Shown in pieces: positions 14,598 through 52,881 of a stretch of 64,000 bases of DNA. The number at the start of each line of letters is the position of its first letter. Within the stretch, counting starts at the first letter, position 1. Below the pieces are notes generated by a model. That model was not told where the DNA came from. It made no database searches and saw nothing but the letters and a program-made list of their open reading frames with translations. The position numbers and the translations under genes were made by a program. Source of the DNA: an uncultured Chloroflexus sp. GTDB taxonomy: Bacteria > Chloroflexota > Chloroflexia > Chloroflexales > Chloroflexaceae. The stretch is taken from contig NZ_CAKZNK010000046.1 of NCBI RefSeq assembly GCF_937129525.1, positions 24,681-88,680 on the forward strand, written 5' to 3'.

Positions 14598-14872
14598 GCG
14601 CAGGCCTCGAAAATCTGGACGTATTCAAAGGCATCTACATACCACTATTTTAGCATACGGCAACAATGAACCTTCTCAGGCAGACATTAACCTTTCCGAT
14701 AGATCATTGGCCTGACACTCACGACTGCGAGCAATGGCCTGCTACCAGTCTAAAGATCATCGCGCCGCGCTATTCCCATCTGCAAAGATAGCGCAGTCTC
14801 TTCTGCTATCAGAACACCCCAGACTTCTGAAGCCAGTTCTTCTCTTTTCTTACAGTCGTAAACTTTATACTC

Positions 14873-16009
14873 TTACCCGGCCATTACCTGATCAAGAAAA
14901 TCGCGAATCAATTCACTCTGCGCAGCCATATCGGTCAAGAAGGCATCATGCCCGGCGTCAGTGGCGATCAGATGGGTCGTAAACGAACGACCAGCCGCTT
15001 GCGCTGCTGCCGCCATCTGAAAGGTTTCGGCTGGCGGATAGAGCCAATCGCTGCTATAAGCCAGACCGAGAAAACGCGCGCGCGCCTGATCGAACGCGGC
15101 TGTCAGTGAACCGTAGCGCGCCGTAAGATCCCAGTTATCCATCGCCCGCGTAATCACCAGATAGGAGTTAGCATCGAAACGGTCATTAAACCGGGCCGCC
15201 TGATGTTCGAGATAGTGCTCGATAGCAAAACGTGGTTCTAAATCGAGGGTGTCGGGATCACTGCGCCGTCCAAACCGTTTCTCCAGCTTCTCTTCGCAGA
15301 GGTAGGTGATGTGACCAAGCATGCGCGCCACAGCCAGCCCATCACGCGGTGGTTCGCTATCGTAATAGTCGCCACCTCGCCAGCGCGGATCGGACATAAT
15401 CGCGCGTCGGCCAATGTAGTTCCAGGCTACCGTTTGCGGGCTTGAACGCGCGCTGGTTGCCAGCAAGATCGCGCTCCGCACCCGCTGCGGATATTCCACT
15501 GCCCAGGCCAATGCCTGAAACCCACCCATCGAACCACCGGCAACTGCCAGTAACGTTTCAATTCCCAGCGCATCGATCAGGCGCTGCTGCGCATGCACCA
15601 TGTCTTCGATGGTGATCATCGGAAAGCGTGACCCGTAGGGCTTGCCATCGCTCGGATGCGGGCTTGACGGGCCGGTTGAGCCGCGACAGCCGCCAATCAC
15701 GTTCGAGCAGATTACAAAGTAGCGATTGGTATCGAACGGCCTGCCCGGGCCAATCATTGCATCCCACCAGCCCGGTTTGCGATCGGTGGGGCTATGGTAG
15801 CCGGCAGCATGCGCGTCGCCCGACAGGGCATGCAGGATCAAGATCGCATTCGAACGATCGGCATTCAATTCGCCGTAAGTCTCATATGCCAGCGTTAATG
15901 GCCCAAGCGCTGCGCCACTCGTCAGCGTCAGCGGCGTCGTCCAATGCATTCGTTGGGTACGCACATAGCCAACCCCCTCCGGGGTTGGCGCATGAACTAC
16001 AGCTTCCAT
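14873..16009 (-). CDS. metX: Homoserine O-acetyltransferase
   Basis: MetX-like alpha/beta hydrolase with the nucleophile elbow GGSMGG. I preferred the ATG at 16009 (MEAVVHAP...); the track start is 16066. Confidence 0.88.
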
Positions 16010-22699: not shown

Positions 22700-23725
22700 T
22701 TAAACCCGCTTGAAATGCACAATGGCCTTATGCCCCGATTGCCTGCCCTCAAAGGTCACTGCGTACAACCCGCGAGGCACATTTTTAGGCACGAAGAGCG
22801 TTCCTGTATAAGTGCCCTTATCGTCCACCGTATCACCACCTGTGAAGCGGACTTCAACCACCGTTCCGGTCGCGACTTGGGTGACGTAGGCGCCGATCGA
22901 CTCATAGGGGACAAAGCCGGTGATCTCAACTTCCAGGGCAAAGAATTCTGCAACGTCGCCTTGCAAGCAGTTTGGTGCGATCGAACCATTGACCGGCGGG
23001 GGAATATCATCACACGGACCCGGCCTCGGCGTAGCGGTCGGTGTCGGTGGGGGAGCAGGCCGATCGCCAAACGCTTCGCGGCCCAGCAAACCCAGCAATA
23101 CTACCTCTGGCCCAAGTCGTTCGTGTAATTCAAAACGCGCTCGCTCAAACCACTGCGTTAAGACGGTATCGCCAGATGTGTTTGTCTCGATCCGCGCTTC
23201 AGTGAGCGGCAAGCCGAACAATGCCAGACTCTCGGCCTCGCTGAAACCGCGCCGGCCATCGAACTCTAATCCATGCGACTGCCAGTAACGCAAGAATGCG
23301 CCACATACGAGATGTTGGGTTTGATCAAAGTAACGACACCCCGCCTGCTGCGTACTCGGAGCCTTCGGTTCATTCTGCCACGGTGTCCCACGCCGCTGGA
23401 GCAAATCATCGCCTAACCGGCCCAACAATACATCGTAGGGCTGCGGATTACCTGGATGCAGTTCAAACCGACTCCGCTCGAAGATTTGCACCAAACGCAA
23501 TCGCCCCTCAACTTCCTGATAGAAAGCAGGCGTAATGGGGTATCCGAAGACCGGTAAGCCGCCGTGCTGACGCCAATAGGTAGCAAACCGGCCCTCAATA
23601 CAGTCGGCAACCTCGTTGAAACAGATCCGTTCCTGAGCCTGAGCCGAACGAACCGACACGACTCCCATCAGAATGACCGTCAGAATTATAGTGATTTTAA
23701 AATGTTTTTGAAATAATTTGTTCAT
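22700..23725 (-). CDS. Secreted repeat protein of unknown function
   Basis: Signal-like N-terminus MNKLFQKHFKITIILTVILMGVVSVRSAQA, with the ATG at 23725 preceded by AGGGG. There are two copies of a ~50-70-aa module ending in FER[SA]RFELH, then a Pro/Thr linker and a beta-rich C-terminal domain. Confidence 0.7.
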   Translation of the reverse strand: MNKLFQKHFKITIILTVILMGVVSVRSAQAQERICFNEVADCIEGRFATYWRQHGGLPVFGYPITPAFYQEVEGRLRLVQIFERSRFELHPGNPQPYDVLLGRLGDDLLQRRGTPWQNEPKAPSTQQAGCRYFDQTQHLVCGAFLRYWQSHGLEFDGRRGFSEAESLALFGLPLTEARIETNTSGDTVLTQWFERARFELHERLGPEVVLLGLLGREAFGDRPAPPPTPTATPRPGPCDDIPPPVNGSIAPNCLQGDVAEFFALEVEITGFVPYESIGAYVTQVATGTVVEVRFTGGDTVDDKGTYTGTLFVPKNVPRGLYAVTFEGRQSGHKAIVHFKRV

Positions 23726-23869
23726 ATAAATAACCCCTGTAATCATAAAAGACTTTCATGTAAAATAATAAGACGACTTTGTTAAATGTCGCAAAAAACA
23801 ACATTAACCTGTAGTTGTCATTTGTTTCGTTAGATCGGCCTCCTTCTATGCTATCTTTATCACAGGAAA

Positions 23870-24490
23870 TTGGTCACAAAGAATCTGGCAAGGAGGCCAA
23901 CCATACTACCGAAAACCCCAGTCAATGAACAACACGAAGTCCAGTTTCCCGATCCGCCGTTCGTTCGCGTCTTGTTCAGCAGCACCAAATTTGCCTGGTT
24001 GTTCCTGATCATTCGGCTCTTTCTCGGCTATTCCTGGCTCACTTCCGGCTGGGGCAAATTGAATAATCCGGCCTGGATGGAGAGTGGCGCCGCCATTCTC
24101 GGTTTCTGGAAAAATGCAGTCACAATACCAGAGACCGGGCGACCGCCGATTGCTTACGACTGGTATCGTTCCTTCATCCAGTTTCTGATCGATACCGAGT
24201 CGCATACCTGGTTCGCCAAATTGATCGTTTATGGTGAGATTCTGGTTGGAATCGGCCTGGTCGTTGGCGGCTTAGTCGGTTTTGCCGCCTTCTTTGGCGC
24301 CTTGATGAACTTCAACTTTATGCTCGCCGGCACTGCCAGCACCAATCCGGTGATGTTCACTCTTGCCATCATCTTGATGCTGGGATGGAAAGTTGCCGGC
24401 TACTATGGCCTTGACTACTATCTGCTACCGCTGCTCGGCACACCCTGGGGACGCAACAAACCAGCCCGACCTGCCGCTGCAACTGCCTGA
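23870..24490 (+). CDS. DoxX-family membrane protein
   Basis: Four hydrophobic spans and a DoxX-like segment (LFLIIRLFLGYSWLTSGWGKL). The start is uncertain: the frame opens at TTG 23870, and AAGGAGG at 23888 has no canonical start codon just downstream. Confidence 0.65.
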   Translation: MVTKNLARRPTILPKTPVNEQHEVQFPDPPFVRVLFSSTKFAWLFLIIRLFLGYSWLTSGWGKLNNPAWMESGAAILGFWKNAVTIPETGRPPIAYDWYRSFIQFLIDTESHTWFAKLIVYGEILVGIGLVVGGLVGFAAFFGALMNFNFMLAGTASTNPVMFTLAIILMLGWKVAGYYGLDYYLLPLLGTPWGRNKPARPAAATA

Positions 24491-24661: not shown

Positions 24662-26467
24662 TTACCCTGTGGCCCGGCTCTGCATCCGCGCCAGCTCATC
24701 CTCAACAACCTGCTCGTCCAGCTTCTTGAACAACGGTTGCGGCGGGCGCAACGTCTGGCCGACCGGCAGCGCCGATGGCTCCCAGCGTCCTACCCACTGC
24801 TCATACTCACCGGTAAGCACGCGATGAGTGCGGCCATCAGCTTCGGTTACCTCGCGGAAGAGCAACGGGCCGGCAATGTAACCATCATAACCCAGGTACT
24901 CATGCAAGCGCTGGCTTGAGAAGGGCAGGAAAGGCGTAAAGATGATCTTGAGCGTATCCACGCATCGTAACGCAACATACCAGATCGTAGCTGCGCGCTC
25001 GCGATCTTGCTTGATGACCTTCCAGGGTTCCTGTTCACTCAGGTAGATATTCACCTGGCCAGCCAATCGCATTGCTTCGCTCAACGCCGCCTTGAAACGA
25101 GCCGCTGCCAGCAAATCGCCAACTGTCTCTAGCCCTGTCGTAACCTCTTCCAGCAATTGCTCGTCGGCAGCAGTCAATTGACCGGGCTGTGGCACCTGAC
25201 CAAAATTCTTGTAGACGTTGGTCAGGGTGCGATTAACCAGATTGCCCCAGGTCGCAACCAGCTCGTCGTTATTGCGCCGCACAAACTCAGCCCAGGTAAA
25301 ATCGGTGTCCTGATTTTCCGGGCCGGCAATGGTGAGAAAGTAGCGCAACGCATCGGCGTCATACCGGCTGAGAAAGTCATTGACATAGATTACGATGCCC
25401 CGCGAACTCGAGAACTTCTTGCCCTCCATGGTCAGAAATTCGCTCGAGACCACATTGTAGGGCAGTTGCAGCGGAATGCCCTCGTACTTCCCTCCTGGAT
25501 GCGCGCCAAACTGACCGCCAGCCCCATAACCCAGTAACATTGCCGGCCAGATCACCGTGTGAAAGACGATATTATCTTTACCCATGAAGTAGAAATGGCG
25601 CGCGTCTGGATTCTGCCACCACGCCCGCCAGGCATCCGGATCGCCGCGATTGATTGCCCATTCGATGCTTGCCGACAGGTAGCCAATGACAGCATCAAAC
25701 CAGACGTAGATCTTCTTGTCATCGCGATGCACATACTCCGGTAATGGAATTGGCACACCCCATTCGAGATCGCGCGTGATCGGACGCGGCTTCAGATCTT
25801 TGAGAAAGTTGAGCGAGAAATTACGCACGTTTGGTCGCCAGTGGTGTTGTTGGTCGATCCAGGTGCGTAACTGCTCGGCAAATGCCGGTAGATCGAGGAA
25901 GAAATGTTCGGTTGGCTTGAAGACCGGCGGCTGCCCATCAACCTTCGAACGAGGATTGATCAGGTCGGTCGGATCGAGCTGACTCCCACAATTGTCGCAC
26001 TGATCACCGCGTGCCTCGTCATAGCCACAGATCGGGCAGGTGCCTTCGATATAGCGATCGGGTAACGTTCGTCCGGTTGTAGCCGAGAATGCGCCTAACG
26101 TCTCTTTGCGGATAATATAGCCTCGTTCGTAAAGTGTGCGAAAAATATCCTGCGTTACAGCATAGTGGTTGGCTGTCGTAGTGCGCGTGAACGTATCATA
26201 GCTCAGGCCGAGATTGTACAAATCATCGCCGATGATCTTATTGTAGCGATCGGCAATTGCTTGCGGCGTTGTACCTTCTTTATCGGCAACCAGCGTGATC
26301 GGTGTACCATGTTCGTCAGTGCCTGAAATCATCAGTACACGATTGCCCCGTAATCGATGGTAACGGGCAAAAATATCAGCCGGCACACCAAACCCGGCCA
26401 CGTGCCCGATATGACGCGGCCCATTCGCATAAGGCCACGCAACCGCAACCAGAATATGCTCAGACAT
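24662..26467 (-). CDS. metG: Methionyl-tRNA synthetase
   Basis: 601-aa ORF with the HIGH motif (PRHIGHVAG), a KMSKS-like motif (KFSSSRG) and the zinc knuckles [18 protein letters not shown]. Confidence 0.95.
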
Positions 26468-26742
26468 GCTGACACCTCAATTGGGCAATAACTGGCAACT
26501 TCTGCGTCACCGAACGTCAGTCTGACGGAATATGATCAGACTCTACACAAAAGCACTTTACAGAACACAGATTAAGGAAAAGAGGGAAGCTGGCGGTTAA
26601 CCCGCCATAAAACCGCGCGCGGTCAGCCGAAGGCCGCGCCAATGGGCAGGCGTGAACCAGGATTGAGGTATCAAATCTATTGATCGACCCATGGTTACTC
26701 CACGATTGCCACGACAGCATCTGTAGTATAACACAGACACAG

Positions 26743-26771
26743 TTGCAGGTAGTGCCAGATTCGCATATTAT
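26743..26771 (+). promoter_or_regulatory. Candidate promoter for the SH3b-exonuclease gene pair
   Basis: TTGCAG (26743..26748) - 17 nt - TATTAT (26766..26771). Confidence 0.35.
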
Positions 26772-26792
26772 AAACATCCGAAGCTGCTGTCA

Positions 26793-28046
26793 TTGAGGAT
26801 GCTCATGCAAACAACACTCAGTCAGATTTCACTGCCTATAGCAATCAGTCTGATCTTTCTCGGTATCGTCATCATTGTGCTGGTCGTCATCTTGATCCGC
26901 CGACGACAGGCTGCCAATCAGGCGCCGCCTACGCCTGAGATTCCACCGGCAACCACGATTGACTACACAGCCATCCCCCTTGAGGAACCGGAGAGCTGGC
27001 AGGATCGTCTGCGCAATCTGTCGCTGGCCGCCAGAGTGCTCCTGCTGCTGATTCCGATCTTGCTCTGCCTTTCGATTGGGGTGTTGGCGCTGAGTCTTAT
27101 CAACGAAGAACAATCTGTCGCTCCGCCACCTACTCCCACCCCTTCGCCCATTCCTGTCACCCTCACCATCGAAGACGCAACTGTTGTGCGCGCCGAACCT
27201 CCAACGATCAATGTGCGTGTTCGCGCGACTGGCCTGCCTGACAATACAGAGTTGCAGGTAGAATTACGCGCCGATGGTCAACCGCTGCGCTGGTTTGATC
27301 CCGATCAGACAATCCGTATTCGCCGCGATCGCGGCGATCTGCGGGCCGAAAAATTGCCCGATGGCGATCCAACACCGCAAGGGCCACGCTATACGGTGGT
27401 GGTGCGTCTGCCTGACGGCAGTTTGAGCGACGAGGCTGAGCTGTTGATACCTGAGCTAGTTGCGGCTGCCTTCTTCGGAACAGTGGCAGAGGTACCCACT
27501 CCAACGTTCCCACCAACGTTCACGCCGGAACCGGTCGCGCAGGTCACCCCAACCCCGCCGCCAACACCGACCATTCCGCCTACACCAGTCTTGCCCGTCG
27601 GTCAACCGGTGGCGGTCATCAACGGCGGCAATGTGCGCAAACTACCGTTCATTACTGATAATGTCATTGGCGGAGTTAATGCCGGTGAGCAGGTGCAGAT
27701 CCTGGCCCGCACTCCCAACGCCCGCTGGTTTTACGTGCGCACGGTGCGCGATGAAATCGGATGGGTAAGCGGTACGCTCCTCGCTGTCAACGACTTGATC
27801 ATTGCCGAGGCCAGGGTTGCCAATGTCGTGACCGTCTTTGTCAGCGGGACGGTCTATTTAGCCGCCGATCCGGACAGCGCCGCAATCGACCGGGTCGAAG
27901 CAAATGAGGTGGTTGAATTATTGGAGCGCACCGCCGATGGATCGTGGTATCGCGTTCTCAATGTGCGTGATCGCGAAGGATGGGTGCAGGCCAGCCTGCT
28001 CGGCATTCCCGATGATGTGATTGCTCAGGTACCCATAGCCCAATGA
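26793..28046 (+). CDS. Single-pass membrane protein with Pro/Thr linkers and two SH3b-like domains
   Basis: TM span ISLPIAISLIFLGIVIIVLVVILI, PTP-rich linkers, and two SH3b-like segments (RWFYVRTVRDEIGWVSGTLL and SWYRVLNVRDREGWVQASLL). The start is ambiguous among TTG 26793, ATG 26799 and ATG 26805. Confidence 0.7.
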   Translation: MRMLMQTTLSQISLPIAISLIFLGIVIIVLVVILIRRRQAANQAPPTPEIPPATTIDYTAIPLEEPESWQDRLRNLSLAARVLLLLIPILLCLSIGVLALSLINEEQSVAPPPTPTPSPIPVTLTIEDATVVRAEPPTINVRVRATGLPDNTELQVELRADGQPLRWFDPDQTIRIRRDRGDLRAEKLPDGDPTPQGPRYTVVVRLPDGSLSDEAELLIPELVAAAFFGTVAEVPTPTFPPTFTPEPVAQVTPTPPPTPTIPPTPVLPVGQPVAVINGGNVRKLPFITDNVIGGVNAGEQVQILARTPNARWFYVRTVRDEIGWVSGTLLAVNDLIIAEARVANVVTVFVSGTVYLAADPDSAAIDRVEANEVVELLERTADGSWYRVLNVRDREGWVQASLLGIPDDVIAQVPIAQ

Positions 28047-40987: not shown

Positions 40988-43852
40988 CTATACTACATAG
41001 CCGGCTGATGGGGAAGTGGGCAAACGTTCGAGCCAGTCAATGATAGCCTGATAATCGAACGTTTCGATCCATTGTCGCAGTTGATGTGCTTCATCAGGCC
41101 GACTGGCCTCGATCTGAGCGGACAGCTCGTGTAAACGGCGAAAGTTGGCTTCGCGCGCCGCCTGGAGCAACGCTGCGCACCATTCAGGATGATACCCATG
41201 ACCATTTATCGGTATCGCCGGCAGCGTATCGGCAGGCGAATCTGCATACTCAAACTCGACGGCCAGGTGTTGCTCGATGAGCCGGACAACATCCTGATCG
41301 CGAAACGGTTTGGACAGAAAATCATTTCCACCTGCTTCCACGACCTGCTCTTGAATGTCACCAAAGACGTGGCCGGAAAGCACAATAATAACCGGTTGGA
41401 TCAAACCCGGTTCGCCAGCGCATGCTTCGCGGATCTGGCGAGCAACGCTCAGGCCATCAAGCTGCGGCATGCGCAGATCGAGCCAGATCAGATGTGGCTG
41501 CCATTCCCGCCAAACTGTCAGCGCCGCCTGGCCATCGGCAACTGATTGCACGGCAAAGCCAAGCCGACGCAGCAGAGCCACCAGAAGTAGAGCGCTGGCT
41601 GGCTGATCATCGGCAACGAGCATCCGATATATCGGCTGACCGGGCCGCAAACCGACCGGGTAGCGCGCTGATGAACGATCAGGGAGCGATAACGAAGAGG
41701 TAATCGCGGTTTGCAATGGCAGTGACAGGGTAAAACGAGCGCCGTGCCCTATCCCCGCGCTGTACACCGCAAGATCGCCACCCATTAACCGCGCTAGCTC
41801 ATAGCTAATGCTCAGGCCCAGCCCCACGCCGCTTACTGCCGGCTCCTGATCTGCCTGTTGTCCCTGAAAGAAGGGGCGAAAGAGTTGTTGCTGCTCAAAT
41901 GGTGAAATACCGATACCGGTGTCCTCAACGGCAAACAAGATACGCTGCGGTGGAGCTAGCTCAACGCGCAGTTGCACTTCGCCGTTGTAAGTGAATTTGA
42001 TAGCATTGCCCAGCAAATTGATCAAAATCTGGCGCAATTTCGATTCGTCACTGACGATTACTCGCGGCACGTCAGCCGCGCAGGTGACGGTGAATCGCAA
42101 CTGTTTAGCCTCGGCGCGCGCGCGGAAGAGTGATTGGAGATCGCCGATCAGTTGTCGCACATCGAGCGGGGCCGCCGTGTAGGTATAACGACCGGCTTCG
42201 ATCTTGGCCAGGTCAAGCACGTCGTTGATCAGCCGCAACAGGTGCTCGCCGCTGCGATTGATAATCTCAAGATATTCGCGCTGGGTTGCGGTGAGATGCT
42301 CGTCACGCGCCAGCAGTTGCGCAAATCCCAGAACGGCATGCAGCGGCGTGCGCAGTTCGTGGCTGACATTCGCCAGAAATGCGCTCTTGGCCCGGTTGGC
42401 CGCTTCTGCTTGCTGGCGCGCCAAACGCAGTTCGATTTCCGCTTGTTTGCGCGCCGTAATATCGCGCGCCACACCCAATACGACGAGACGCTGGCGCTCA
42501 TCACGCACAAACGAAGTTACAATCTCGCTATGCACGATATGACCGTCGCGATGCACCAGATCAATCTCTGCTGTCCACGGCGGCGCCGTGATGAGATCGC
42601 CTTGCCACTCATGCAGCATATAATGGAGTGATGATTGCACATACCGGGCCGAGTCGGGGGTCAACAGCCTGGCGAACGACATCTCAAGCGCTTCTGCCGC
42701 TGAATAACCGATCAGTTTACGAACCGATGGACTGAAAAAGGTAAACCGTTCTGTTTCGGTATCATACAACCAGATCACATCGGTGGCATGTTCGGCGATT
42801 AGTCGGTAACGAGCCTCACTCTGCCGCAAAGCCTCTTCAATCCACTTGCGTTCGGTAATATCGTGAACAATACTGATTGCGTGTGGCACTCCCCGAATCG
42901 TCACCATTTGCGACGACAGCAAGCACGAGCGCAACTCGCCATCGCGGCGACGAAACTGAAATTCGACGCTGGCGCAACCGCCATCGCGTCGCATCATCTC
43001 TGCCCAGAGTTGTCGATCTTCAGGCGAACGCCAGATGTTGAGCGCGACCCCGTCTTTACCTAACGCCTCTGCTTCCGTATATCCGCTGATGTGGGTAAAA
43101 CCGCGATTCACCTTTACAAAAGCGCCATTGTCCAGCCGCGATAGCAAGACGGCATCCGGCTGGGCCATAAAAATATGTTCGAGCTGCTGCACCGTGTCGC
43201 GCTGGGCAACGATCAGTTCTTGATGAACCAGCAAAATCAGCCCAAACGTCCACAACGTGCTGGTCGCAATCGACATCAAATAGGTAGCTGTTTGCCAGGG
43301 AGGAGATATTGTCAGCCAGTTCTCTTCTGTGGCCGAAGCGATACCGCGCAACGCAAAAAAGACCCCATTCGTTATGAATACAACGACGAGAAACCAGATG
43401 ATCGGGCGCAGGTTGGTCTGCAATTCAGGCAGAAAACGCAACCCGATCAAAAATGAACAGATCGCCACCACAACCGAGAAGAGAATCCGTCGTAGCGGTG
43501 GCACATCACCGGTGAGCACCAGGATCAGATAAGCTGCCAGGAGCAGAAACGCGATCAGAAACAGCCGCCAGAGCGAAACCCGATCGCCCCAAAATCGTTT
43601 GACGCCGTGGTACAGCAATATCATGCCAACGCCGACCATGGTGTGACTGATCGCATGCAGTAAGAGGGGCAACTCGGTTACATCACGCAGTGTGGTCAGG
43701 ATTAACCCTGCCGCTAATACCCCCATTCCCGCGGCCCAACACCACAAACCTGAACGTGATCGATGGGCGAGCGCCAGACCAACCAGCGCAGCAGTTTGCA
43801 AAACGTTGGCAAGATTGAGGGTGATAGACAAGGTTAATAGGTCAACGGTCAT
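40988..43852 (-). CDS. Hybrid sensor histidine kinase (multi-TM sensor, two PAS, HisKA-HATPase, receiver)
   Basis: An N-terminal ~200 aa with about seven hydrophobic spans, PAS-like segments, H-box FLANVSHELRTPL, G-boxes, and a receiver (MLVADDQP...LIWLDLRMPQLDG). Confidence 0.9.
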   Translation of the reverse strand: MTVDLLTLSITLNLANVLQTAALVGLALAHRSRSGLWCWAAGMGVLAAGLILTTLRDVTELPLLLHAISHTMVGVGMILLYHGVKRFWGDRVSLWRLFLIAFLLLAAYLILVLTGDVPPLRRILFSVVVAICSFLIGLRFLPELQTNLRPIIWFLVVVFITNGVFFALRGIASATEENWLTISPPWQTATYLMSIATSTLWTFGLILLVHQELIVAQRDTVQQLEHIFMAQPDAVLLSRLDNGAFVKVNRGFTHISGYTEAEALGKDGVALNIWRSPEDRQLWAEMMRRDGGCASVEFQFRRRDGELRSCLLSSQMVTIRGVPHAISIVHDITERKWIEEALRQSEARYRLIAEHATDVIWLYDTETERFTFFSPSVRKLIGYSAAEALEMSFARLLTPDSARYVQSSLHYMLHEWQGDLITAPPWTAEIDLVHRDGHIVHSEIVTSFVRDERQRLVVLGVARDITARKQAEIELRLARQQAEAANRAKSAFLANVSHELRTPLHAVLGFAQLLARDEHLTATQREYLEIINRSGEHLLRLINDVLDLAKIEAGRYTYTAAPLDVRQLIGDLQSLFRARAEAKQLRFTVTCAADVPRVIVSDESKLRQILINLLGNAIKFTYNGEVQLRVELAPPQRILFAVEDTGIGISPFEQQQLFRPFFQGQQADQEPAVSGVGLGLSISYELARLMGGDLAVYSAGIGHGARFTLSLPLQTAITSSLSLPDRSSARYPVGLRPGQPIYRMLVADDQPASALLLVALLRRLGFAVQSVADGQAALTVWREWQPHLIWLDLRMPQLDGLSVARQIREACAGEPGLIQPVIIVLSGHVFGDIQEQVVEAGGNDFLSKPFRDQDVVRLIEQHLAVEFEYADSPADTLPAIPINGHGYHPEWCAALLQAAREANFRRLHELSAQIEASRPDEAHQLRQWIETFDYQAIIDWLERLPTSPSAGYVV

Positions 43853-43973
43853 CCCTATGCTCCGGCAGCTTCGGCAATTAATTTATATTGTATGCTGAAT
43901 AGCTGCGGCTTGCATGGATAATCAACACATGTTTGGTTACTGTGATCGATACAACGGTAGGCAGACAATTTCA

Positions 43974-46691
43974 TTAGCGCATGATTGTCAATGGAAGCTG
44001 TAATGGTACCGCATCTACGATCTCTCCGTTATGCACATTGAATTTTGCAATAGGAATGCCAACTGAATGCGGATCATTCACTGGCTTAAGATAAACGATG
44101 TAGCGTCCATCAACTGCTGGCATCGCTTGCTCCAACCACCATCCTTCTGGCTGAAGCACATTGAGACGTACTTCAGTAGTTTCACGAACCGAGATTCTAC
44201 CCTGCGCCACCACAACTGGCCGTTCAGTTCCTGCTTCAGCGCCTTGAATCAAAAACAGAATAGTAGAATGCCCGGCAAGCTGAATGCGAAACATATATTG
44301 CGCTTCTTCAAAAGCACTTGCTACTGCAATCGCAGCTCCTTTAATATCCGGTAAAATCGCAGTTTCCTGCCAGACTTGGACTCGCACAACACTGAAACGC
44401 TCACTTATGCCCCTGACAGTAATCGATTGACCACTTCTCAATGTGACTGTTATCGTCTGACCACCTGCAGCTATCCAGATTGGCTGATCATTGATCCAGA
44501 TCTGTTGAGATGACAAACTGGCTATCTCTAACAAGATCTTTGCCTGTTCAACTGATTTGCGCAGTAGAATTCGCTCGCTTCCAACTACAATGCTGTTTTC
44601 CATCAACGTAATATTCAACATCGATGGATGTCGCGCATGTAGTTGTCCAACATCAGGCACACCTGGTTGATAAATAGCAAGTACATCACGTGACACCTCA
44701 TAAATGGCTGCACCTTCACCTTGCCAGAGTGGATCGGTAATGACGCCAAACTGGAAATAATCTTCACTCTGGCCCAATACTACATAGTCAAACACCTGTC
44801 CGGCTTGTGGTGATTTTTGTTTTGGATAAAACCACAATCGTGACGGACCATAAATGGTTGCACCCGACTCAAGCAATCGTTGCTGCAATGACAGTGCCAA
44901 CAGACCTGGAATTTGTTCACTACCTGACAGAAAGACCTCCGATTGAGCTATTGGTAATTCGTTGAGAATAGGATCTGGATCAATCTCGTAGACAAGAGAA
45001 CCATCAACCTCAACCAACCTTTTCAACAATGGACTCTGCTCAGCCCATGCTAATAAAGCAATACTCTTTTCTGTATCTGGCAATTCATGACGATGAATAA
45101 CTAGTGTATCTACACCTAAACGAGATAGGAAGCGAAGGGCATCGTCGTCTGGTAAACGATTCATCTGATGAAATAGTATGGATGTACCTATTGGAACAAG
45201 ACCGCTGTATCCAGGAAGAATCTTCCGCCAGTGCTGAGTTTGATAAAACTGCCGTCGCATAATCGATGCGCCTCCTCCTATTCGAGGAGGTACCGGTAGC
45301 TCAAGGATAACCCGCCGCTGATATGGATTAGTTTGAGCTAACCAGTGATAAACTGCCGGTACTTTTGGAATATCAATACGAGGGATAGGAATTACCAGAT
45401 GTTCAATCAATGCCAATGCTGCAATGATCGCTATCAAACTCCCTCGCCAATAATGGAAAAGTCTCATCGCACCGATACCGGCAAGGACACTGAGCGCCAT
45501 ACTCCCAATCATCCACCATCGCGCCGGTACACGTAGCGCTTTCATGCCCGGTACCCAATCGTACAACCATTGATATGGCAATAAGGTAGGAAAAGGTTCG
45601 CTGTCAATCGTAGTACGAAACACTGATCCTAAAGACAATACAAATGCAACACCTAATATAGTGATCAAACCGACACCATCACGCCGGGATTGCCTCCAAA
45701 GGAACCATGCACCAATGCTGGCAAGAGTGATGGTCAGGAAACCAGGAAATAGATTGAGTTCATCACTGTTATAGGTGTTTACTGGCAAATGCATTCTGGA
45801 TAATATGTTTCCCGATGGTACTGACAAAAATGCCTGTAAAGGAGCAGATCCACGCTCAAGCTCTGTTGATGAACGAACAATACCAAGCCATTGATAGACT
45901 TCGATATATGGTAGGAAAAAAGGTATCATCATAGCTACAGCAACGCATGCCGTAACTACTAATCCGATTATACGTTGTTTGATAGAATACCAGTTTCTCC
46001 AATCTAACCATTCATTTGGCCAAAACCAAACACCTGCAAGAATGCCTAAAACAAGCACAGTCATTGGGGCGTAATATATTGCAGCAATTCCTTGTATCCC
46101 AGCAAAAACACCAGTTAGCACCGATGCAAACCAAAAAAAGCGTCCTTGCGCAATAGTCATTTGACGCAACCAGTACAGTGCTAGCGGTAGCCACGCTGTT
46201 TGTAGCATTTGTAAGTGTGGTAAATGAGACATTCGATAGGTATTGAAAGCAAATAGTGAACCTGCCAGTATAGCACCAAAAGTAATAACCGATTTTGGTT
46301 GGTGGCCATGAAAAATTGATCGCATTAATAAGAATACTGCCCAACCGCTAAGCACAAAACTTAACATAACTAACAGATTGTACGCAAGGACAAGTTGTTG
46401 ATTTGCTAATAATGGCAACGCTAAAATCGCTAAAAAAATATGATGATCACTAAACGCCAACGTATTCGGATAAGGATAGAAAATAGGTGCATTCCAGATG
46501 CGCGTCGGATTAGTAAGAATTGCATGAGCATTCCAGGATAATGTCCACAGTTGGAACAATGGATCACTCCCGCTGCCAGCAATAGTTGTTGTTATTTCCA
46601 AAGAAAGCGGCCATGTCCATATTACTGTAAGCAGTATGTACCAAACAATGGGCCATAAATTATTCCAGCACTTCTGAATTGTCCGTACCAT
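43974..46691 (-). CDS. Large polytopic membrane protein of unknown function, low-GC paralog
   Basis: 905-aa uninterrupted ORF, collinear with the 926-aa ORF at 48135..50915. The N-terminal half is hydrophobic. The base composition is visibly AT-richer than the rest of the window. Confidence 0.8.
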   Translation of the reverse strand: MVRTIQKCWNNLWPIVWYILLTVIWTWPLSLEITTTIAGSGSDPLFQLWTLSWNAHAILTNPTRIWNAPIFYPYPNTLAFSDHHIFLAILALPLLANQQLVLAYNLLVMLSFVLSGWAVFLLMRSIFHGHQPKSVITFGAILAGSLFAFNTYRMSHLPHLQMLQTAWLPLALYWLRQMTIAQGRFFWFASVLTGVFAGIQGIAAIYYAPMTVLVLGILAGVWFWPNEWLDWRNWYSIKQRIIGLVVTACVAVAMMIPFFLPYIEVYQWLGIVRSSTELERGSAPLQAFLSVPSGNILSRMHLPVNTYNSDELNLFPGFLTITLASIGAWFLWRQSRRDGVGLITILGVAFVLSLGSVFRTTIDSEPFPTLLPYQWLYDWVPGMKALRVPARWWMIGSMALSVLAGIGAMRLFHYWRGSLIAIIAALALIEHLVIPIPRIDIPKVPAVYHWLAQTNPYQRRVILELPVPPRIGGGASIMRRQFYQTQHWRKILPGYSGLVPIGTSILFHQMNRLPDDDALRFLSRLGVDTLVIHRHELPDTEKSIALLAWAEQSPLLKRLVEVDGSLVYEIDPDPILNELPIAQSEVFLSGSEQIPGLLALSLQQRLLESGATIYGPSRLWFYPKQKSPQAGQVFDYVVLGQSEDYFQFGVITDPLWQGEGAAIYEVSRDVLAIYQPGVPDVGQLHARHPSMLNITLMENSIVVGSERILLRKSVEQAKILLEIASLSSQQIWINDQPIWIAAGGQTITVTLRSGQSITVRGISERFSVVRVQVWQETAILPDIKGAAIAVASAFEEAQYMFRIQLAGHSTILFLIQGAEAGTERPVVVAQGRISVRETTEVRLNVLQPEGWWLEQAMPAVDGRYIVYLKPVNDPHSVGIPIAKFNVHNGEIVDAVPLQLPLTIMR

Positions 46692-46762
46692 AGTTGTATA
46701 AACCCCTAGAAACTCACGACAACATTACCTGCTATCCTTGTTGGTGTACTACAACTTTTTTA

Positions 46763-46792
46763 CAAATATATCGTATATAAATATATCGTATA
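46763..46792. repeat. Perfect tandem duplication of a 15-bp AT-rich unit
   Basis: AAATATATCGTATAT occurs twice back to back (46763..46777 and 46778..46792) in the spacer upstream of the low-GC gene. Confidence 0.9.
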
Positions 46793-46868
46793 TTTTTAAT
46801 CTATAGAATGAATTTAAATAGTTTAAAATAACGCTTTATTAGTATCCAGATTGTTTGATAAACACATC

Positions 46869-47988
46869 TAATACCAATTGTCTATTGAAAGACCGTATTT
46901 CCAATAGAGAAGCCGTTCACTGTCTCGTGTATCCACACCCAGCCGGTCAGCCGTCGCACTCGTGCTGGGTCAGCTGCAAGCCGCTCCAGCTCCCGTTCAA
47001 TCTCGTCTGCTTCTCCTCCAGGTTCGCATCCACCCTGTCTTCCACCGCGAGCCGAAGCGCTTCAAATACCCACTCCGCTGGGTTTCATGCCAGCGAGGAT
47101 GCCGGTTGTTCAATCACGTGCACCCCCAACCGCTCTTCCCCGCTTGGCACGATGGCTTGGAGCTCTATCCCAGATCAACACCGTGACCCCCGCTTCCCGC
47201 CATCGCTGCAGCACCGCGACAGTCGACTCCTGTTTCGTGTTCGGCGTCCATTGTCAACAACGGTCTCACGACGCTGTTGACCACCAGGTTCAGGTACACC
47301 CATTCATCGCGCCGCTCGACCGGCTGCCGCGCCTACATGCGCTGCGCGCTTGATCAGCCCGACTCGCATCGCATCTCCCCAGGCGAGACCTGCGGTCTGC
47401 TTGACGCCTGCGCGCGTCAATGCAGCCAGCAAGCCCCCTTGTTCCACGCCTTCTGCGCCGCTCCCGAAGCGCGCGCGGCGACCGGACGAGGCACGTTCTT
47501 CTTTACGCCGATACGGGCAACCACCCAGCGCATCCCCAAGGAGGTGTACTCCACCCCGCACGCCTGTGTTGCCCAGTGTATCCCGTCCCAGCTACGCCGA
47601 ATCTCCCCTCGACTCGCCCGTTCCTTCAATTCCGCTTCCCGCTCAGGGGTCAACCGGGAACGCTTGCCCCGACACCCACCCCGACGGCGGTGTCGCACTG
47701 CCGCCAATCCACCCCGACGATACCGCGCCACCCAATCGTGCAGCGTTCGGTCATCTATCCCCACCATCTGCGCTGTCTCCCGCAGTGAATGCCCGTTCCG
47801 CAGCCACCATACGGCGCGCAGCCGGGTGCGCTGCCGGGAATCCTGCTCTGCCTTTGACAGATTGAAGCGTGTGGGTTTATCTTCCTGCCAGTTGATGTGC
47901 AAACGTTGCCTGCTCATGATACTGTTCCTCCTTGCTCAGGTGTTGTGGCTCTTATCATTGACGAGCTTTGAAACAGCAATTAGTATAA
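46869..47988 (-). mobile_element. Decayed IS630/Tc1-mariner-family insertion sequence
   Basis: It contains an IS630-like transposase N-terminal ORF plus broken catalytic-domain remnants. The candidate imperfect terminal inverted repeats are 46869..46891 and 47966..47988 (16 of 23 positions complementary by my alignment). The length is 1120 bp. Confidence 0.6.
46947..47917 (-). pseudogene. IS630-family transposase, disrupted
   Basis: The HTH N-terminal ORF at 47417..47917 is intact (RLRAVWWLRNGHSLRETAQMVGIDDRTLHDWVARYRRGG). Downstream pieces occur in other frames: GDAMRVGL, VLIWDRAPSHRAK, and QPASSLA*NPAEWVFEAL with an in-frame TGA. Confidence 0.7.
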
Positions 47989-48134
47989 CTATTATTCCGG
48001 TAACGATACACGAAGTCATCGAATATAGTGTAAACACACCAACTCGTTGCAGAACATCTGCTTAATTTCGAACTGTGGTCGTTCTTGAACATAACCAGAT
48101 TCGATCAGCCAAGTAGTGGAATCTTGCTCCTAAA

Positions 48135-50915
48135 TTAATACCGAACCCCTGTCAATACCGTTAATGGTATTGGTAACGCCTGAGCAGCTACAATTTGACC
48201 GTTGCGCACTTGAAATTGAGCAATCGGTATGCCGTCTGCTGCCGCCAGAGGTTTCACATACGCGATGTAACGACCATCAACCGCATCGTTTACCTGTTCC
48301 AGCCATTCCGCTTCCGGCTGAAGCAAATCGATGATTGCGTTCACCGATCCACCATTCGCTACAGCTATCGTGCCGCGAACAAGCGAAACCGGTCGTTCGG
48401 TTCCGGCTTCAGCTCCAAGTATTTCAAGGATGATCTGATCGGCGCCGCTTATGCGTCCCGCTATCGAGAGCTGCGCGCCGCTGAGGGCGCTGTCTATGCA
48501 GATCGCCACTCCGGTCGCATGCATCTGATTTGGCGTATCACGCCATAATTGTAGCCGCGCGATACTAAAGATGGCTGGATCGCCATCAATTGTCACCGGC
48601 TGATCCCGCCGGATTGTCATCACCAACCGTTGTCCACCCGCAGAAACCCGATGCAACTCCCCGTTGATCCGAATATCTTGCTCTTCCAAACTGGCAACAT
48701 CAAGCGCAAGTGTGGCCTGTTCCAGCCATTCCGGCAGCGCAAACCGGGCGCGATCAATGACAATACTGTCGCCGAGTATTACTACGGTGAGTGTCGCCGG
48801 ATGGCGCGGATGATATTGACCTGGCTCAGGAACTCCCGGCTCAAACGTTGCTATCAGCGAATTGGCAACTTTATAGATCGCTAACCTGCTGTCTTGCCAG
48901 ATGACAGCAGTCGGATCGGCGCCGAAGGGTAGTGGATCTTCGTTGATGGCCAGCGCCACATAATCAAACACCTGCCCGGCTTGTGGCTCAGCCAGCGCCG
49001 GATAGAAAGAAGGTCGCTGAGGGCCGTAGACGATTCCGCCGGCTTCTTGCCAGCGCCGGGCAAACGACAAAGCTAACATGCCAGGGATGCGACTATTCGC
49101 CGAGAGATACAGCGTCGCGCCAGAAATATTTGATGGCAATGTGAGTACCGGCTTGATGGCGTACACCACTGCTTCCCCAATCTTGGCTTTCCGCTCTAAC
49201 AATACATTCTGATCGGCCCACGCCACCAGCCGTTGAACCTCTGCCGGATCTGAGAAATTGTCCTGATGGATGATTAGAGTATCAATTCCGAGTTTGGCTA
49301 TCAGGCTCAACGTTCCATCATCAGGGAGGCGCTGGAGCTGACGCGCTAGTTCAAGTGAACCGTGGGGAAAGATGCCGCTGTACCCTGTAACCAGTGACCG
49401 CCAGTGATAGATCTGAAAGAATTGTCGCCAGGCGATTTGATCAGACCGCAGTTTGGCATCGACTGGTAATTCCAGCGCGACTCGATGCTGAAGTGAATCG
49501 GTTTGCGCCAACCATTGGTAAACCGGAGGCGGTGATGGAATTGTTATCTGCGGCATAGGCCATACCAGATGTTCGAGCAAAGCTATTGTCGCAATTGCCG
49601 GCCATAGCCAGCGCCAGGCACGCCATCGCTGCCACCATACTGCTGCTCCGATTCCGGCCAGCACTGCCAGCGCCAGACTGCCCATCATCCACCAGCGCGC
49701 CGGCACACGGAGCGAATTGAAACCCGGCACGTGTTCATATAACCATACATACGGCAAAGGGGACGCGATCAATTCACCATCGAAAGCAAGCCGTAACCCA
49801 ACCCCCAGTGAAAACACGAAACCGGTAGCTACCATAGCGCCGAAAACTAGCGCCGTCCGCCACATGCGTTGTCGGATCAACCAGTGCGCTCCGACAAGCG
49901 CAATGACAGCCGCAATCAGACCGGGAAAGAGCTTTAACTCACCACTTCCGCCGGAGGCGACGACTAGTTCACCGGATATCCGATGCCAGAGATTATCAAC
50001 CGGCACAGCCCGATATGCTTCGAGCGGCGCTGACCATTTGTCAAGTTCAATGATCGAGCGGATAACGCCAATGTACCGATACACATGCATGTAAGGCCAC
50101 AGCAACGGCAGAGTAATGGTTGCCGCCAGCCCACCCGCCAGCGCCAGGCCAGCCAGATACCGCCTTAGCTCTCGCCATCCTGCCACTGACCGAATCCGCT
50201 TCGGCCACAACCAGATCACCGCCGCAAGCCCCAATGCCAACGCCGCCATTGGCGCGTAATAGATTGCGGTAATCGCTTGTAATCCGGCAAACAAACCGGT
50301 TAGTAACGCCGCGCGCCAAAATGCCCCACCTGACCGCGCGCTCATCTGACGCAACCAGAACAATGCCAGTGGCAGCCATGCCATTTGCAACATTTGTAAA
50401 TGGCCGATATGTGCCATCCGGTAAGTGCTAAACGCAAACAACGAACCTGCCAGCAATGCGCCCAGCGTAGCCGCCGACTTGCCAGTGTCCTCAATCAGAA
50501 GATTGCGAGTAAGCAAAAAAACTGACCATCCGGAGAGCGCGAAACTGAGCATCACCAGCAGGTTATACGCTAACACCACCTGCCCGCAGGCGAGGATCGG
50601 TAACATCAATAGAGCCAGTGGCAGGTGATGATCACTGTAAGCTAGCGTGGTGGCATATGGAAAAAAGATTGGCGCATCCCATACGCGGGTTGGATGATTG
50701 AGCAGCGCATGAGCATCCCACGCCAATGTCCACATCTGAAACAGCGGATCGACACCATGACCTGGCACGACCGTCGTAAGATTGAAGACCAGTGGCCATG
50801 TCCAGAAAACGGTCAGCGCAAAAAACCAGAACAATGGCCAACCGACCAGCCACCACCTTTGCATCGTCTGGCGTAGATTGATACGCATAGAGTGCTCTTC
50901 CGGCTCATCAGTCAT
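48135..50915 (-). CDS. Large polytopic membrane protein of unknown function, host-GC paralog
   Basis: 926-aa uninterrupted ORF, collinear with 43974..46691. Internal starts (for example MRINLRQ at 50888) are possible. Confidence 0.8.
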   Translation of the reverse strand: MTDEPEEHSMRINLRQTMQRWWLVGWPLFWFFALTVFWTWPLVFNLTTVVPGHGVDPLFQMWTLAWDAHALLNHPTRVWDAPIFFPYATTLAYSDHHLPLALLMLPILACGQVVLAYNLLVMLSFALSGWSVFLLTRNLLIEDTGKSAATLGALLAGSLFAFSTYRMAHIGHLQMLQMAWLPLALFWLRQMSARSGGAFWRAALLTGLFAGLQAITAIYYAPMAALALGLAAVIWLWPKRIRSVAGWRELRRYLAGLALAGGLAATITLPLLWPYMHVYRYIGVIRSIIELDKWSAPLEAYRAVPVDNLWHRISGELVVASGGSGELKLFPGLIAAVIALVGAHWLIRQRMWRTALVFGAMVATGFVFSLGVGLRLAFDGELIASPLPYVWLYEHVPGFNSLRVPARWWMMGSLALAVLAGIGAAVWWQRWRAWRWLWPAIATIALLEHLVWPMPQITIPSPPPVYQWLAQTDSLQHRVALELPVDAKLRSDQIAWRQFFQIYHWRSLVTGYSGIFPHGSLELARQLQRLPDDGTLSLIAKLGIDTLIIHQDNFSDPAEVQRLVAWADQNVLLERKAKIGEAVVYAIKPVLTLPSNISGATLYLSANSRIPGMLALSFARRWQEAGGIVYGPQRPSFYPALAEPQAGQVFDYVALAINEDPLPFGADPTAVIWQDSRLAIYKVANSLIATFEPGVPEPGQYHPRHPATLTVVILGDSIVIDRARFALPEWLEQATLALDVASLEEQDIRINGELHRVSAGGQRLVMTIRRDQPVTIDGDPAIFSIARLQLWRDTPNQMHATGVAICIDSALSGAQLSIAGRISGADQIILEILGAEAGTERPVSLVRGTIAVANGGSVNAIIDLLQPEAEWLEQVNDAVDGRYIAYVKPLAAADGIPIAQFQVRNGQIVAAQALPIPLTVLTGVRY

Positions 50916-51297: not shown

Positions 51298-52881
51298 ATG
51301 ACTCAGCGCGACACTGAATCAAATGCCGCTGCGCCACTCACTCTTCGCGCCCGCATTGAACTCTTACGGCAACGCCGTCGCCATCTTGAACAGGGTGGCG
51401 GCCCTGAGCGGATTGCCCGCCAGCATCAATCCGGCAAACTCACTGCCCGCGAACGGGTTCATCTACTGATAGATCACGACACCTTTCAGGAGCTGTACCT
51501 CTTTTCGCGCCATCGTTGCACTGCCTTTGGCATGGCCGACAAAGAGATGCCCGGCGAGGGAGTGATTACCGGTTGCGGGAGTGTCGATGGTCGTCAGGTG
51601 TTTGTAGCAGCGCAGGATTTTACCGTTGCCGGCGGTTCAGTTGGTGAGATGCATGCCGATAAGATCTGTCAGACGATGGATCTTGCGCTCAAATGTGGTT
51701 CGCCATTCATTACGATCAATGACAGTGGCGGCGCCCGCATTCAAGAGGGTATTGATGCGCTGAGCGGGTATGGCCGCATCTTTTATCGCAACGTCCTCCT
51801 CTCTGGGGTTGTGCCACAAATTGCGATCATCGCCGGGCCTTGCGCTGGCGGCGCCGCTTATTCGCCCGCGCTCATGGATTTTATCATTATGGTGCGCGGG
51901 AGTGAGATGTTCATTACCGGCCCGGAAGTGCTCAAACAGGTAACTGGTGAGCATGTAACCGGCGAAGAACTCGGCGGTCCCGAAGCGCAAGTGCGGAGTG
52001 GCGTCGCCCACTTTATTGCCGACAATGACCAGGAGGCAATTGCCCTGTGCAAGCGCTTGCTTGGCTTTTTGCCGTCAAACAATCTCGAAGATCCTCCTGA
52101 CCGCAGCGATGGTGAATTGCGCTTTTTCACCGATCCTGCGCTCGATACAGTTATCCCCGATGATCCCCGCGAACCTTACGATGTCATCCCGATTATCAAG
52201 CGACTGGTAGACGATGGTGACCTGCTTGAAGTGCAGCGCGGGTTTGCCGATAACGCGGTGATTGGCTTCGCCCGCATCGATGGCAATACGGTTGGCATTG
52301 TTGCCAATCAGCCGATGGTGATGGCCGGCGTCCTCGATATTGACGCCTCAGACAAAATTGCGCGCTTTGTTCGTTTCTGCAACGCCTTCAATATTCCGAT
52401 CATCACCTTCGTTGATGTGCCCGGCTTCTTGCCCGGTGTCGCTCAGGAGCGTGGTGGAATCATTCGGCACGGCGCCAAAATGCTGTTCGCATATTCGGCG
52501 GCGACGGTTCCCAAGATCACGATCATCTTGCGCAAAGCCTATGGCGGCGCATACCTGGCAATGTGCGGCAAAGACCTCGGCGCCGACCGCGTGGCGGCCT
52601 GGCCGAGTAGTGAGATTGCCGTGATGGGACCGGAAGGCGCGGTTAACATCATCTTCCGCGACCAGATTAAACAGGCGGAAGACCCGGCTGCCGCCCGCGC
52701 CGAGTTCCTGCGCCTCTATCGGGCTGAATTCGCCACTCCTTATGTTGGCGCCGCGCGCAATCTGATCGATAGCATCATTGCTCCCAGTGAAACGCGCCGT
52801 TATCTCAGTCTGGCGCTGGCGTCATTGCGCACCAAACGCGAATTTCGCCCACAGAAAAAGCACGGCCTGGTGCCTCTGTAA
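51298..52881 (+). CDS. Acyl-CoA carboxyltransferase subunit (methylmalonyl-CoA decarboxylase alpha / PccB-like)
   Basis: 527-aa ORF with a two-domain carboxyltransferase sequence (DFTVAGGSVGEMHADK, GGAYLAMCGK). GGAGG precedes the ATG. Confidence 0.9.
   Translation: MTQRDTESNAAAPLTLRARIELLRQRRRHLEQGGGPERIARQHQSGKLTARERVHLLIDHDTFQELYLFSRHRCTAFGMADKEMPGEGVITGCGSVDGRQVFVAAQDFTVAGGSVGEMHADKICQTMDLALKCGSPFITINDSGGARIQEGIDALSGYGRIFYRNVLLSGVVPQIAIIAGPCAGGAAYSPALMDFIIMVRGSEMFITGPEVLKQVTGEHVTGEELGGPEAQVRSGVAHFIADNDQEAIALCKRLLGFLPSNNLEDPPDRSDGELRFFTDPALDTVIPDDPREPYDVIPIIKRLVDDGDLLEVQRGFADNAVIGFARIDGNTVGIVANQPMVMAGVLDIDASDKIARFVRFCNAFNIPIITFVDVPGFLPGVAQERGGIIRHGAKMLFAYSAATVPKITIILRKAYGGAYLAMCGKDLGADRVAAWPSSEIAVMGPEGAVNIIFRDQIKQAEDPAAARAEFLRLYRAEFATPYVGAARNLIDSIIAPSETRRYLSLALASLRTKREFRPQKKHGLVPL

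Follow-up and report, generated by a model that had tools for sequence, protein, structure and literature searches.

In the Enterobacteria, the gtrABC and O-antigen clusters are AT-rich with respect to their hosts, are moved horizontally and are often flanked by insertion sequences (IS), and the polytopic membrane glycosyltransferase encoded in them is type-specific and alters the surface glycan. Among the large membrane enzymes of the GT-C type are the mycobacterial arabinofuranosyltransferase AftD (PDB 6W98), with its kin AftA, EmbB and ArnT, and YfhO (PF09586), which is the GT-C enzyme of the CsbB/GtcA/YfhO system of teichoic-acid glycosylation in Bacillus, Listeria and Staphylococcus (PMC5836110, PMC8035078) and, as a large protein, may have a carbohydrate-binding domain outside the cell (PMC8035078). 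Envelope glycan biosynthesis is poorly known in Chloroflexus and its relatives. Here we describe a locus in a stretch of 64,000 nucleotides from an uncultured Chloroflexus sp. (assembly GCF_937129525.1, contig NZ_CAKZNK010000046.1, positions 24,681 to 88,680; the whole stretch is hereafter called the window), where two genes for large membrane proteins, A and B, lie side by side with a decayed IS630-family element between them. It is likely, in our judgement, that A and B are paralogs in a Chloroflexales-restricted family of GT-C glycosyltransferases, B being the resident copy and A one acquired in a 4.3-kb insertion, and that the family transfers sugars from polyprenyl phosphate to the cell envelope.

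Two collinear genes of different base composition

The two genes were placed as follows.

43974..46691, minus strand: gene A, an open reading frame (ORF) of 905 amino acids (aa), WP_298816419.1, the low-GC and probably acquired paralog of B
48135..50915, minus strand: gene B, maximal ORF of 926 aa, the resident homolog of membrane glycosyltransferases with a predicted GT-C fold

A first reading of this DNA, made from the letters alone (the sequence-only reading), had described a 905-aa and a 926-aa ORF, collinear end to end on one strand. Both are present at these coordinates and share a strand, which is the minus strand in both cases. In the databases B is called as 917 aa from Met10 (WP_298816423.1). 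BLASTP aligns A and B over their full lengths with 47% identity and 65% positives (912 aligned positions, 16 gaps), the membrane domain being 52% and the soluble parts 44% identical, and all the shared sequence blocks quoted by that reading are visible in this alignment.

The same reading had claimed that the two genes differ sharply in base composition, and this is confirmed by G+C content (GC), by GC at the three codon positions (GC1/2/3) and by codon usage. Gene A has a GC of 0.438 with GC1/2/3 of 0.540/0.417/0.358, and gene B a GC of 0.549 with 0.624/0.462/0.562; the remaining window ORFs of at least 250 aa all show GC3 values of 0.56–0.72. With 36 window genes as the host reference for outlier statistics (mean GC3 0.633, standard deviation 0.039), z is -7.0 for A and -1.8 for B, the latter inside the host range. 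For synonymous codons, the chi-square per codon reaches 0.559 in A and 0.162 in B (reference genes: median 0.141, maximum 0.344), and the relative synonymous codon usage (RSCU) correlates with that of the host at r = -0.04 for A and r = 0.65 for B. Counted only over the 405 aligned positions at which the two proteins agree, GC3 amounts to 0.311 for A and 0.528 for B. Indistinguishable GC3 and codon usage would have spoken against two different origins, but the codon usage of A and that of B differ with p about 1e-9. FYMINK residues make up a fraction of 0.231 in A, compared with 0.187 for B and 0.200 for the host. A is therefore enriched in amino acids with AT-rich codons, so that its AT bias is old and not confined to synonymous sites, the amino-acid composition having shifted too.

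Synteny and limits of the insertion

The surroundings of the two genes were compared with those in three syntenic Chloroflexus genomes, H89_891 (locus L004), SKYG63 (L003) and H12_130 (L045). The segment that is specific to the window and the two anchors of the comparison are the following.

43866..48152: window-specific segment of 4.3 kb with A, the spacers and the IS relic, filling a slot that varies among related Chloroflexus genomes and has the B ortholog on one side and the histidine kinase on the other
40988..43852, minus strand: hybrid histidine kinase (PAS/HisKA/response-regulator), left synteny anchor, outside the island
51298..52881, plus strand: Carboxyl_trans carboxyltransferase subunit, right synteny anchor, outside the island

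In L003, L004 and L045 the same flanking genes enclose a single ortholog of B, and A is absent. On the side of the carboxyltransferase the shared flank also includes YkuD, OYE, OAD-beta and OAD-gamma, and on the side of the histidine kinase it includes GGDEF and LepA; the gene order common to the three genomes is carboxyltransferase, one B ortholog, variable slot, histidine kinase. The conserved position between carboxyltransferase and histidine kinase in other Chloroflexus genomes shows B to be the resident copy, inherited vertically. The blastn homology to L004 and L045 stops at window positions 43865 and 43863, respectively, just past the start codon of the kinase, and resumes at 48153 and 48181, at the stop codon of B. 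These breaks, together with conserved flanks that hold B only, identify 43866..48152 as a lineage-specific insertion directly downstream of B. The sequence-only reading had named a tandem pair of equal composition, conserved in all relatives, as an observation that would count against it; the relatives lack the pair, and no tandem A/B arrangement was found within +/-10 kb among about 30 Chloroflexales loci.

The slot is filled differently elsewhere. In L004 it contains 1.9 kb with a gene on the other strand (12800-14278, minus) for a 492-aa Big_5/Big_9/DUF7619 protein, and in L045 it contains 0.9 kb (386-1282) without a clear gene. The slot beside the B ortholog is hence a variable spot whose cargo is different in each genome. 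The kinase is 74% identical at the amino-acid level to its counterparts in L004 and L045, and the carboxyltransferase is 94-95% identical to those in L003 and L004. B orthologs are only 58-61% identical, against 74-97% for their neighbours (94-97% for carboxyltransferase, OAD-beta and LepA, 74% for the kinase), so that B is the most divergent gene of the syntenic block, which suggests fast evolution or allele replacement. No transfer RNA (tRNA) gene lies near the island, the only one of the window being at 12972, and no integrase was found.

Structure models and family relations

Neither A nor B matches any curated model of Pfam or NCBIfam, even at E ≤ 1, in keeping with the earlier statement that no family could be assigned; a confident profile match to a characterised family, which would have settled the question the other way, did not appear. 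Searches of PDB chains by sequence gave nothing meaningful with B alone or with the profile of 39 full-length members. YfhO (PF09586) is matched by 5 of these 39 members in the TM2-TM6 region (TM, transmembrane helix; best E 4e-6), where they cover about 150 of the 835 profile positions and score at most 25.9 bits, short of the gathering score of 28.5; A and B themselves do not match PF09586 at E ≤ 1. PTPS_related (PF10131) and DUF6311 (PF19830) match neither A, B nor the 39 members. The cut-off of PF10131 is passed only by more distant N-terminal homologs, over about 125 of 621 positions, and precomputed PF19830 flags on two proteins (P0129 and P0134) could not be reproduced. A search of 1.84 billion cluster representatives with the C-terminal module (B residues 600-926) returned 26 representatives at E ≤ 1e-3, and the module is C-terminal in every listed full-length protein (about 900 aa) and hardly occurs outside the Chloroflexales. 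The named full-length relatives nearly all belong to the Chloroflexales (Chloroflexus, Roseiflexus, Oscillochloris, Chloroploca, Viridilinea and others), with one labelled Herpetosiphonaceae. In view of this distribution and of the lack of curated matches, the A/B family is a lineage-restricted, uncharacterised family inside the GT-C superfamily. A literature search found no paper on it in Chloroflexus and none mentioning DUF6311.

Structural models were built with AlphaFold2 from the 39-sequence alignment and are of high confidence (B: pLDDT 91.9, pTM 0.87; A: pLDDT 91.0, pTM 0.86). When these models were compared with the PDB using Foldseek, every match with E ≤ 1e-3 was a GT-C enzyme. For B the matches are AftD (5.6e-13), yeast STT3 (2e-6), AftA (3e-6) and ArnT (4e-5), with Pmt4 and EmbB just above 1e-3; for A they are AftD (6.4e-12), AglB (2e-8), STT3 (9e-8) and PglB (9e-6), followed by AftA and ArnT. 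The TM-scores, normalised to the target, are 0.45-0.53 for targets of 540-650 aa. The C-terminal part gave weak, non-significant Foldseek matches to beta-glucuronidase chains (E about 2e-3 to 1e-2), and a viral structure library gave no informative match. The models thus support, at the level of the fold, that A and B are GT-C proteins, and the GT-C-type architecture suggested by the sequence-only reading holds to that extent. They also agree with its division into an N-terminal region with many membrane spans and a C-terminal part outside the membrane; the length of about 480 aa given for the former does not hold, as the modelled membrane core, with some 11 long or transmembrane helices, takes up residues 1-450. 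It is followed by an alpha/beta region to about residue 600 and then by about 320 aa of beta-sandwiches, the soluble part being predicted to be extracytoplasmic.

The long first loop after TM1, likewise predicted to be extracytoplasmic, carries an invariant aspartate in the motif GxGDPLxQxW (D56 in B, D43 in A). A GT-C enzyme is expected to have an acidic residue (a modified DxD) in this loop, and D56/D43 occupies that place, between TM1 and the loop helix that follows it. A second motif, RVPARW, with the invariant R403 and R407, lies just before TM10. D56, R286, R403 and R407 are invariant in 39 of 39 full-length members and also in a wider alignment (A4) of 19 sequences, which joins A, B, P0025 and P0036 to 15 distant homologs (25-33% identity) from Acidobacteriota, Anaerolineae and other groups. 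These conserved Asp and Arg residues point to a catalytic site, with D56 as the candidate catalytic residue.

The same fold could serve a different chemistry. A and B might glycosylate proteins, O- or N-linked, with a substrate of the S-layer or pilin type, or might even be a non-catalytic scaffold, given that the protein glycosyltransferases STT3, AglB, PglB and Pmt4 are among the top fold matches, that no curated family fits, and that the slot beside the B ortholog of L004 encodes a protein with Ig-like domains (Big_5/Big_9), suggesting a surface protein. The best match of both models is, however, the polysaccharide arabinosyltransferase AftD, with large beta-sandwich domains as in A and B; the remote sequence links lead to YfhO, a teichoic-acid glycosyltransferase (PMC5836110, PMC8035078); and GT4 and sugar-nucleotide genes neighbour the closest relatives of A (see below). 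Protein glycosylation would in any case still be GT-C chemistry and would differ from the envelope-glycan transfer that we favour in the acceptor only. We consider this alternative rather unlikely.

A short homolog (about 540 aa) that comprises the N-terminal part only is present as two tandem copies in a metagenome-assembled genome of the Acidobacteriota (L036, 10001-13922), so tandem duplication of the GT-C core does occur in other phyla.

The IS630 relic, the spacers and the integrity of gene A

Three features lie between the two genes.

46692..46868, minus strand: spacer upstream of the start codon of A, GC 0.266, strongly AT-rich
46869..47988, minus strand: decayed IS630-family element of about 1.1 kb, GC 0.607, with approximate bounds that derive from the step in GC only
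47989..48134, minus strand: spacer from the stop codon of B to the IS relic, GC 0.404, moderately AT-rich

An intact ORF of 166 aa (47417..47917, minus) matches the helix-turn-helix (HTH) domains of the IS630 transposase, that is, the N-terminal 130 positions of the NCBIfam model. In the DDE part, frameshifts and stops disrupt the frame at least three times, and the region is readable only across three frames. A pseudo-protein stitched by hand from these pieces matches NF033545 of NCBIfam at positions 2-286 of 299 (E 2.4e-20, 73 bits against a cut-off of 100 bits); this full pseudo-protein scored against NCBIfam only, and the stitched DDE fragments alone have no Pfam match. The decayed IS630-type element that the sequence-only reading had seen between the genes is therefore real. 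Terminal inverted repeats at the relic ends are no better than in shuffled controls and no TA duplication is recognisable; blastn against plasmids gave no match, and the relic occurs once in the window. As judged from its broken frames, the element is a dead relic and not an active member of its family.

The claim that both spacers are strongly AT-rich stands for 46692..46868, and the other spacer is only moderately so. Outside the island only 0.4% of the 150-nt windows have a GC below 0.40. The element appears to have inserted into the AT-rich upstream region of A, of which 47989..48134 is probably the other half. A tandem TA-rich repeat of 15 nt at 46761..46790 (TACAAATATATCGTA / TATAAATATATCGTA), overlapping short palindromes, was noticed about 70-100 nt upstream of the start of A; it could be a regulatory site or plain low-complexity sequence.

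The ORF of A is uninterrupted and retains 60 of the 60 family-invariant columns and essentially all near-invariant residues, for which reason the gene is probably functional. Its start is called differently in the JGI and Logan data (Leu45, 861 aa), which would remove TM1 and the invariant Asp43, and the NCBI start that gives 905 aa agrees with the family alignment. A could nonetheless be thought of as a non-functional relic, the dead passenger of a decayed mobile element on its way to being lost: the neighbouring IS is dead, counts of promoter and terminator signals are no higher than in shuffled sequences, and a related copy in Chloroflexus sp. H69_720 (L029, 9431-12230) is split over three reading frames. 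Against this stand the 905 uninterrupted codons, the complete set of invariant residues and a confident model (pLDDT 91), and we hold such a loss of function to be improbable. The L029 copy itself is probably a pseudogene; its GC is 0.481 and that of the rest of its locus 0.554.

Relatives and origin of gene A

The relationships within the family were examined in a neighbour-joining tree (Kimura-corrected, 879 columns, 200 bootstraps). A groups with P0214 (100%), then with P0006 (100%) and then weakly with P0121 (62%); these are referred to as the A-clade. B groups with its syntenic orthologs (99%), and A branches outside all of them. A-clade and B-clade form a joint clade with 100% support, apart from a Roseiflexus-type clade. 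The three relatives of A are the following.

P0214 (locus L057): GC 0.450, GC3 0.395, flanks of GC 0.55-0.58
P0006 (L059): GC 0.456, GC3 0.387, flanks of GC 0.61
P0121 (L060): GC 0.473, GC3 0.439, on a 6-kb contig of GC about 0.50

P0214 is 57% and P0006 48% identical to A. The RSCU of A correlates with that of P0006 at 0.85, of P0214 at 0.70 and of P0121 at 0.69, and with that of the GT4 gene beside P0214 at 0.59. Low GC is thus a property of this whole small clade and not of copy A alone. Since the nearest relatives of A are still Chloroflexus-type sequences, the transfer did not span a long distance. L057 is a Chloroflexus-like contig: its UbiB shares 84-87% identity with Chloroflexus proteins and about 68% with those of the next genera, and in codon usage the contig correlates with the window host at r = 0.89.

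Sugar-related genes adjoin all three relatives: GT4, a lectin-like hydrolase fold, BNR and PMT_2 in L057, a gene of the epimerase/GDP-mannose-dehydratase family in L059 and a double GT4 in L060. P0214 and P0006 both adjoin the same DDE_Tnp_1_3 transposase, a fragment of which recurs beyond the other end of the A-like gene. The direct repeats that bracket the A-like gene in this way (415-652 and 5003-5238 in L059; 1855-3075 and 6043-6203 in L057; contigs FWWL01019967.1 and FWWL01005906.1) are about 82% identical over 150-240 nt and all start at the same DDE_Tnp_1_3 coordinate, an arrangement that looks like the relic of a composite transposon. In L057, positions 3000-10500 form a low-GC islet of about 7.5 kb (GC 0.40-0.52) in a contig of GC about 0.58; it comprises the A-like GT-C gene, GT4, a 3-keto-disaccharide-hydrolase-like protein and a BNR-repeat protein, and is followed by a PMT_2 GT-C gene at host GC. 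The window shares no flanks with the other A-clade loci and bears no trace of the L057/L059 transposase.

No relative more than 57% identical to A was found in 5.8 billion proteins, species-representative genomes and metagenome contigs. In search of a donor, a metagenome scan with A alone returned nothing, and one with the A-clade alignment returned only the two known FWWL contigs and distant soil homologs. As for the marks of an acquired islet, an atypical composition and absence from the syntenic site were both found; a donor lineage or an integrase/tRNA site was not. The sequence-only reading had taken A for a xenolog, or an island remnant, beside a resident homolog. Synteny, homology breaks, clustering and codon usage agree with this view and mark A as an acquired xenolog, its source being an AT-rich gene pool near to Chloroflexus.

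Could A instead have arisen in place, by tandem duplication of B and later drift to low GC? The two genes are adjacent, collinear, on the same strand and 47% identical, they fall into one fully supported clade, and the members of that clade that can be assigned are Chloroflexus-type. A duplicate of this kind is nevertheless not expected to be closer to P0214 and P0006, which lie in unrelated contexts, and outside the B orthologs, nor to share the codon usage of other A-clade genes; none of the about 30 Chloroflexales loci has the pair and the three syntenic ones have B only, and no known local process pushes one gene to a GC3 of 0.36 with both neighbours at about 0.6. We regard a local duplication as very improbable. 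The weakest explanation is an assembly chimera, a low-GC gene of another mat organism mis-joined to the Chloroflexus contig at the IS; although all sources are metagenome-derived, and a repeat element adjoins the low-GC segment with abrupt steps in composition, this is scarcely credible, as Chloroflexus-syntenic DNA on both sides (the kinase on the left, B on the right) would require two precise joins, the relic is single in the window and hence offers no mis-joining repeat there, and the A/B arrangement recurs identically in an independent JGI metagenome contig (Ga0209721_1000306), with A and B listed together on contigs of 245,276 and 57,600 nt and recorded both on NCBI/Logan contigs of 245 kb and on a second JGI contig.

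Other homologs in Chloroflexus were noted in passing. Those of Chloroflexus sp. 629F.1 and MS-G (L005 and L006, 10001-12750) fall inside the Roseiflexus clade with 100% bootstrap, are 65% identical to an R. castenholzii protein and 41% to B, and have a GC3 of 0.46 (flank GC 0.53-0.54); they may represent another inter-genus transfer. In the window itself, mild dips in GC (0.506-0.516) are seen at 14001-15000, 23001-24000 and 26001-27000, the first overlapping a small HisKA/HATPase kinase gene (13578-14597) and the second a 348-aa ORF without a Pfam match (22700-23746).

Proposed function and history

On the model of AftD, ArnT, YfhO and the oligosaccharyltransferases, A and B would each remove a sugar from its polyprenyl-phosphate carrier on the outer side of the cytoplasmic membrane and pass it to a cell-envelope glycan or glycoprotein. 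In this scheme D56/D43 would act at the active site, R403 and R407 would together bind the phosphate of the donor, and the acceptor polymer would be held by the beta-sandwich module. Gene A would have come from a low-GC gene pool that also supplied the three related genes found beside glycan genes, two of them beside transposase sequence as well, and the IS630 element may have landed later in the AT-rich region upstream of A and then decayed. A might add or change a specificity for surface glycans, and A and B would differ in specificity.

Several points weigh against this proposal. The donor, the acceptor and even a transferase activity of the A/B family are read from the modelled fold alone, and the hint at a polyprenyl-phosphate donor that the sequence gives is the invariant R403/R407 pair before TM10 and nothing else. 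No gene for a partner of the polyprenyl-phosphate GT2 or GtrA-type flippase kind lies within 10 kb. The tree is a neighbour-joining tree only, no donor genome was found, and even the nearest relative of A reaches no more than 57% identity. The A-clade members whose background can be judged sit in higher-GC genomes, or on the one 6-kb contig of GC about 0.50; since these backgrounds are not low in GC, a persistent AT-rich accessory pool in Chloroflexus fits as well as a low-GC donor species. Lastly, the ends of the IS relic are undetectable, so that the IS may have come after the island or arrived together with it.

A further reading, of which we are doubtful, extends this picture. The A-clade may be a small and persistently AT-rich pool of GT-C genes that is shuttled by IS elements among the Chloroflexus of hot-spring mats, landing beside the fast-evolving B or swapping with it, which would make the locus a hotspot of surface-glycan diversification. 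It is suggested by the direct transposase repeats in two relatives, the divergent B orthologs and the varying cargo of the slot. Should it be true, an IS-shuttled locus functionally analogous to the serotype-converting gtr or O-antigen loci would exist in the phototrophic Chloroflexota.

The analysis provides a fold-level annotation, GT-C with a candidate catalytic Asp, for a family whose members in Chloroflexus, Roseiflexus, Oscillochloris and their relatives the databases call no more than 'hypothetical protein'. The resident and the imported copy constitute a natural experiment on donor or acceptor specificity, and there is a hint that surface-glycan genes are exchanged and are diversifying within mat-forming Chloroflexus populations. 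Otherwise, to find an acquired gene of high AT content next to the remains of an IS is common, and the A/B locus opens no long-standing question.

Comparison with known systems

AftD, the best structural match of both proteins, resembles them in having a multi-span GT-C core followed by large soluble beta-sandwich modules, similar to carbohydrate-binding ones, and an acidic residue in the first loop after TM1. It differs in sequence (12-14% identity only) and in size, A and B being about 400 aa shorter, and the C-terminal module of A and B is a lineage-specific family. To our knowledge the Chloroflexus host has no arabinogalactan, unlike the setting of AftD. The likeness to YfhO consists of the remote similarity in TM2-TM6 seen in 5 of the 39 family members and of its being a large GT-C protein too, but no csbB-like GT2 gene or gtcA-like flippase gene adjoins A or B. 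The relic between them resembles the IS630/Tc1-mariner group in its HTH and DDE remnants, which match the NCBIfam IS630 model over almost its whole length, and departs from it in scoring below the curated cut-off, in its disrupted frames and in having no recognisable terminal repeats. The island is similar to the gtr and O-antigen clusters in being AT-rich relative to its host, horizontally moved and accompanied by an IS, but it offers the polytopic transferase only, without GtrA/GtrB partners or a prophage context, and in another phylum with another envelope type. Set beside these systems, the locus is a clear but fairly ordinary acquisition, a horizontally acquired paralog of an envelope enzyme next to a dead IS.

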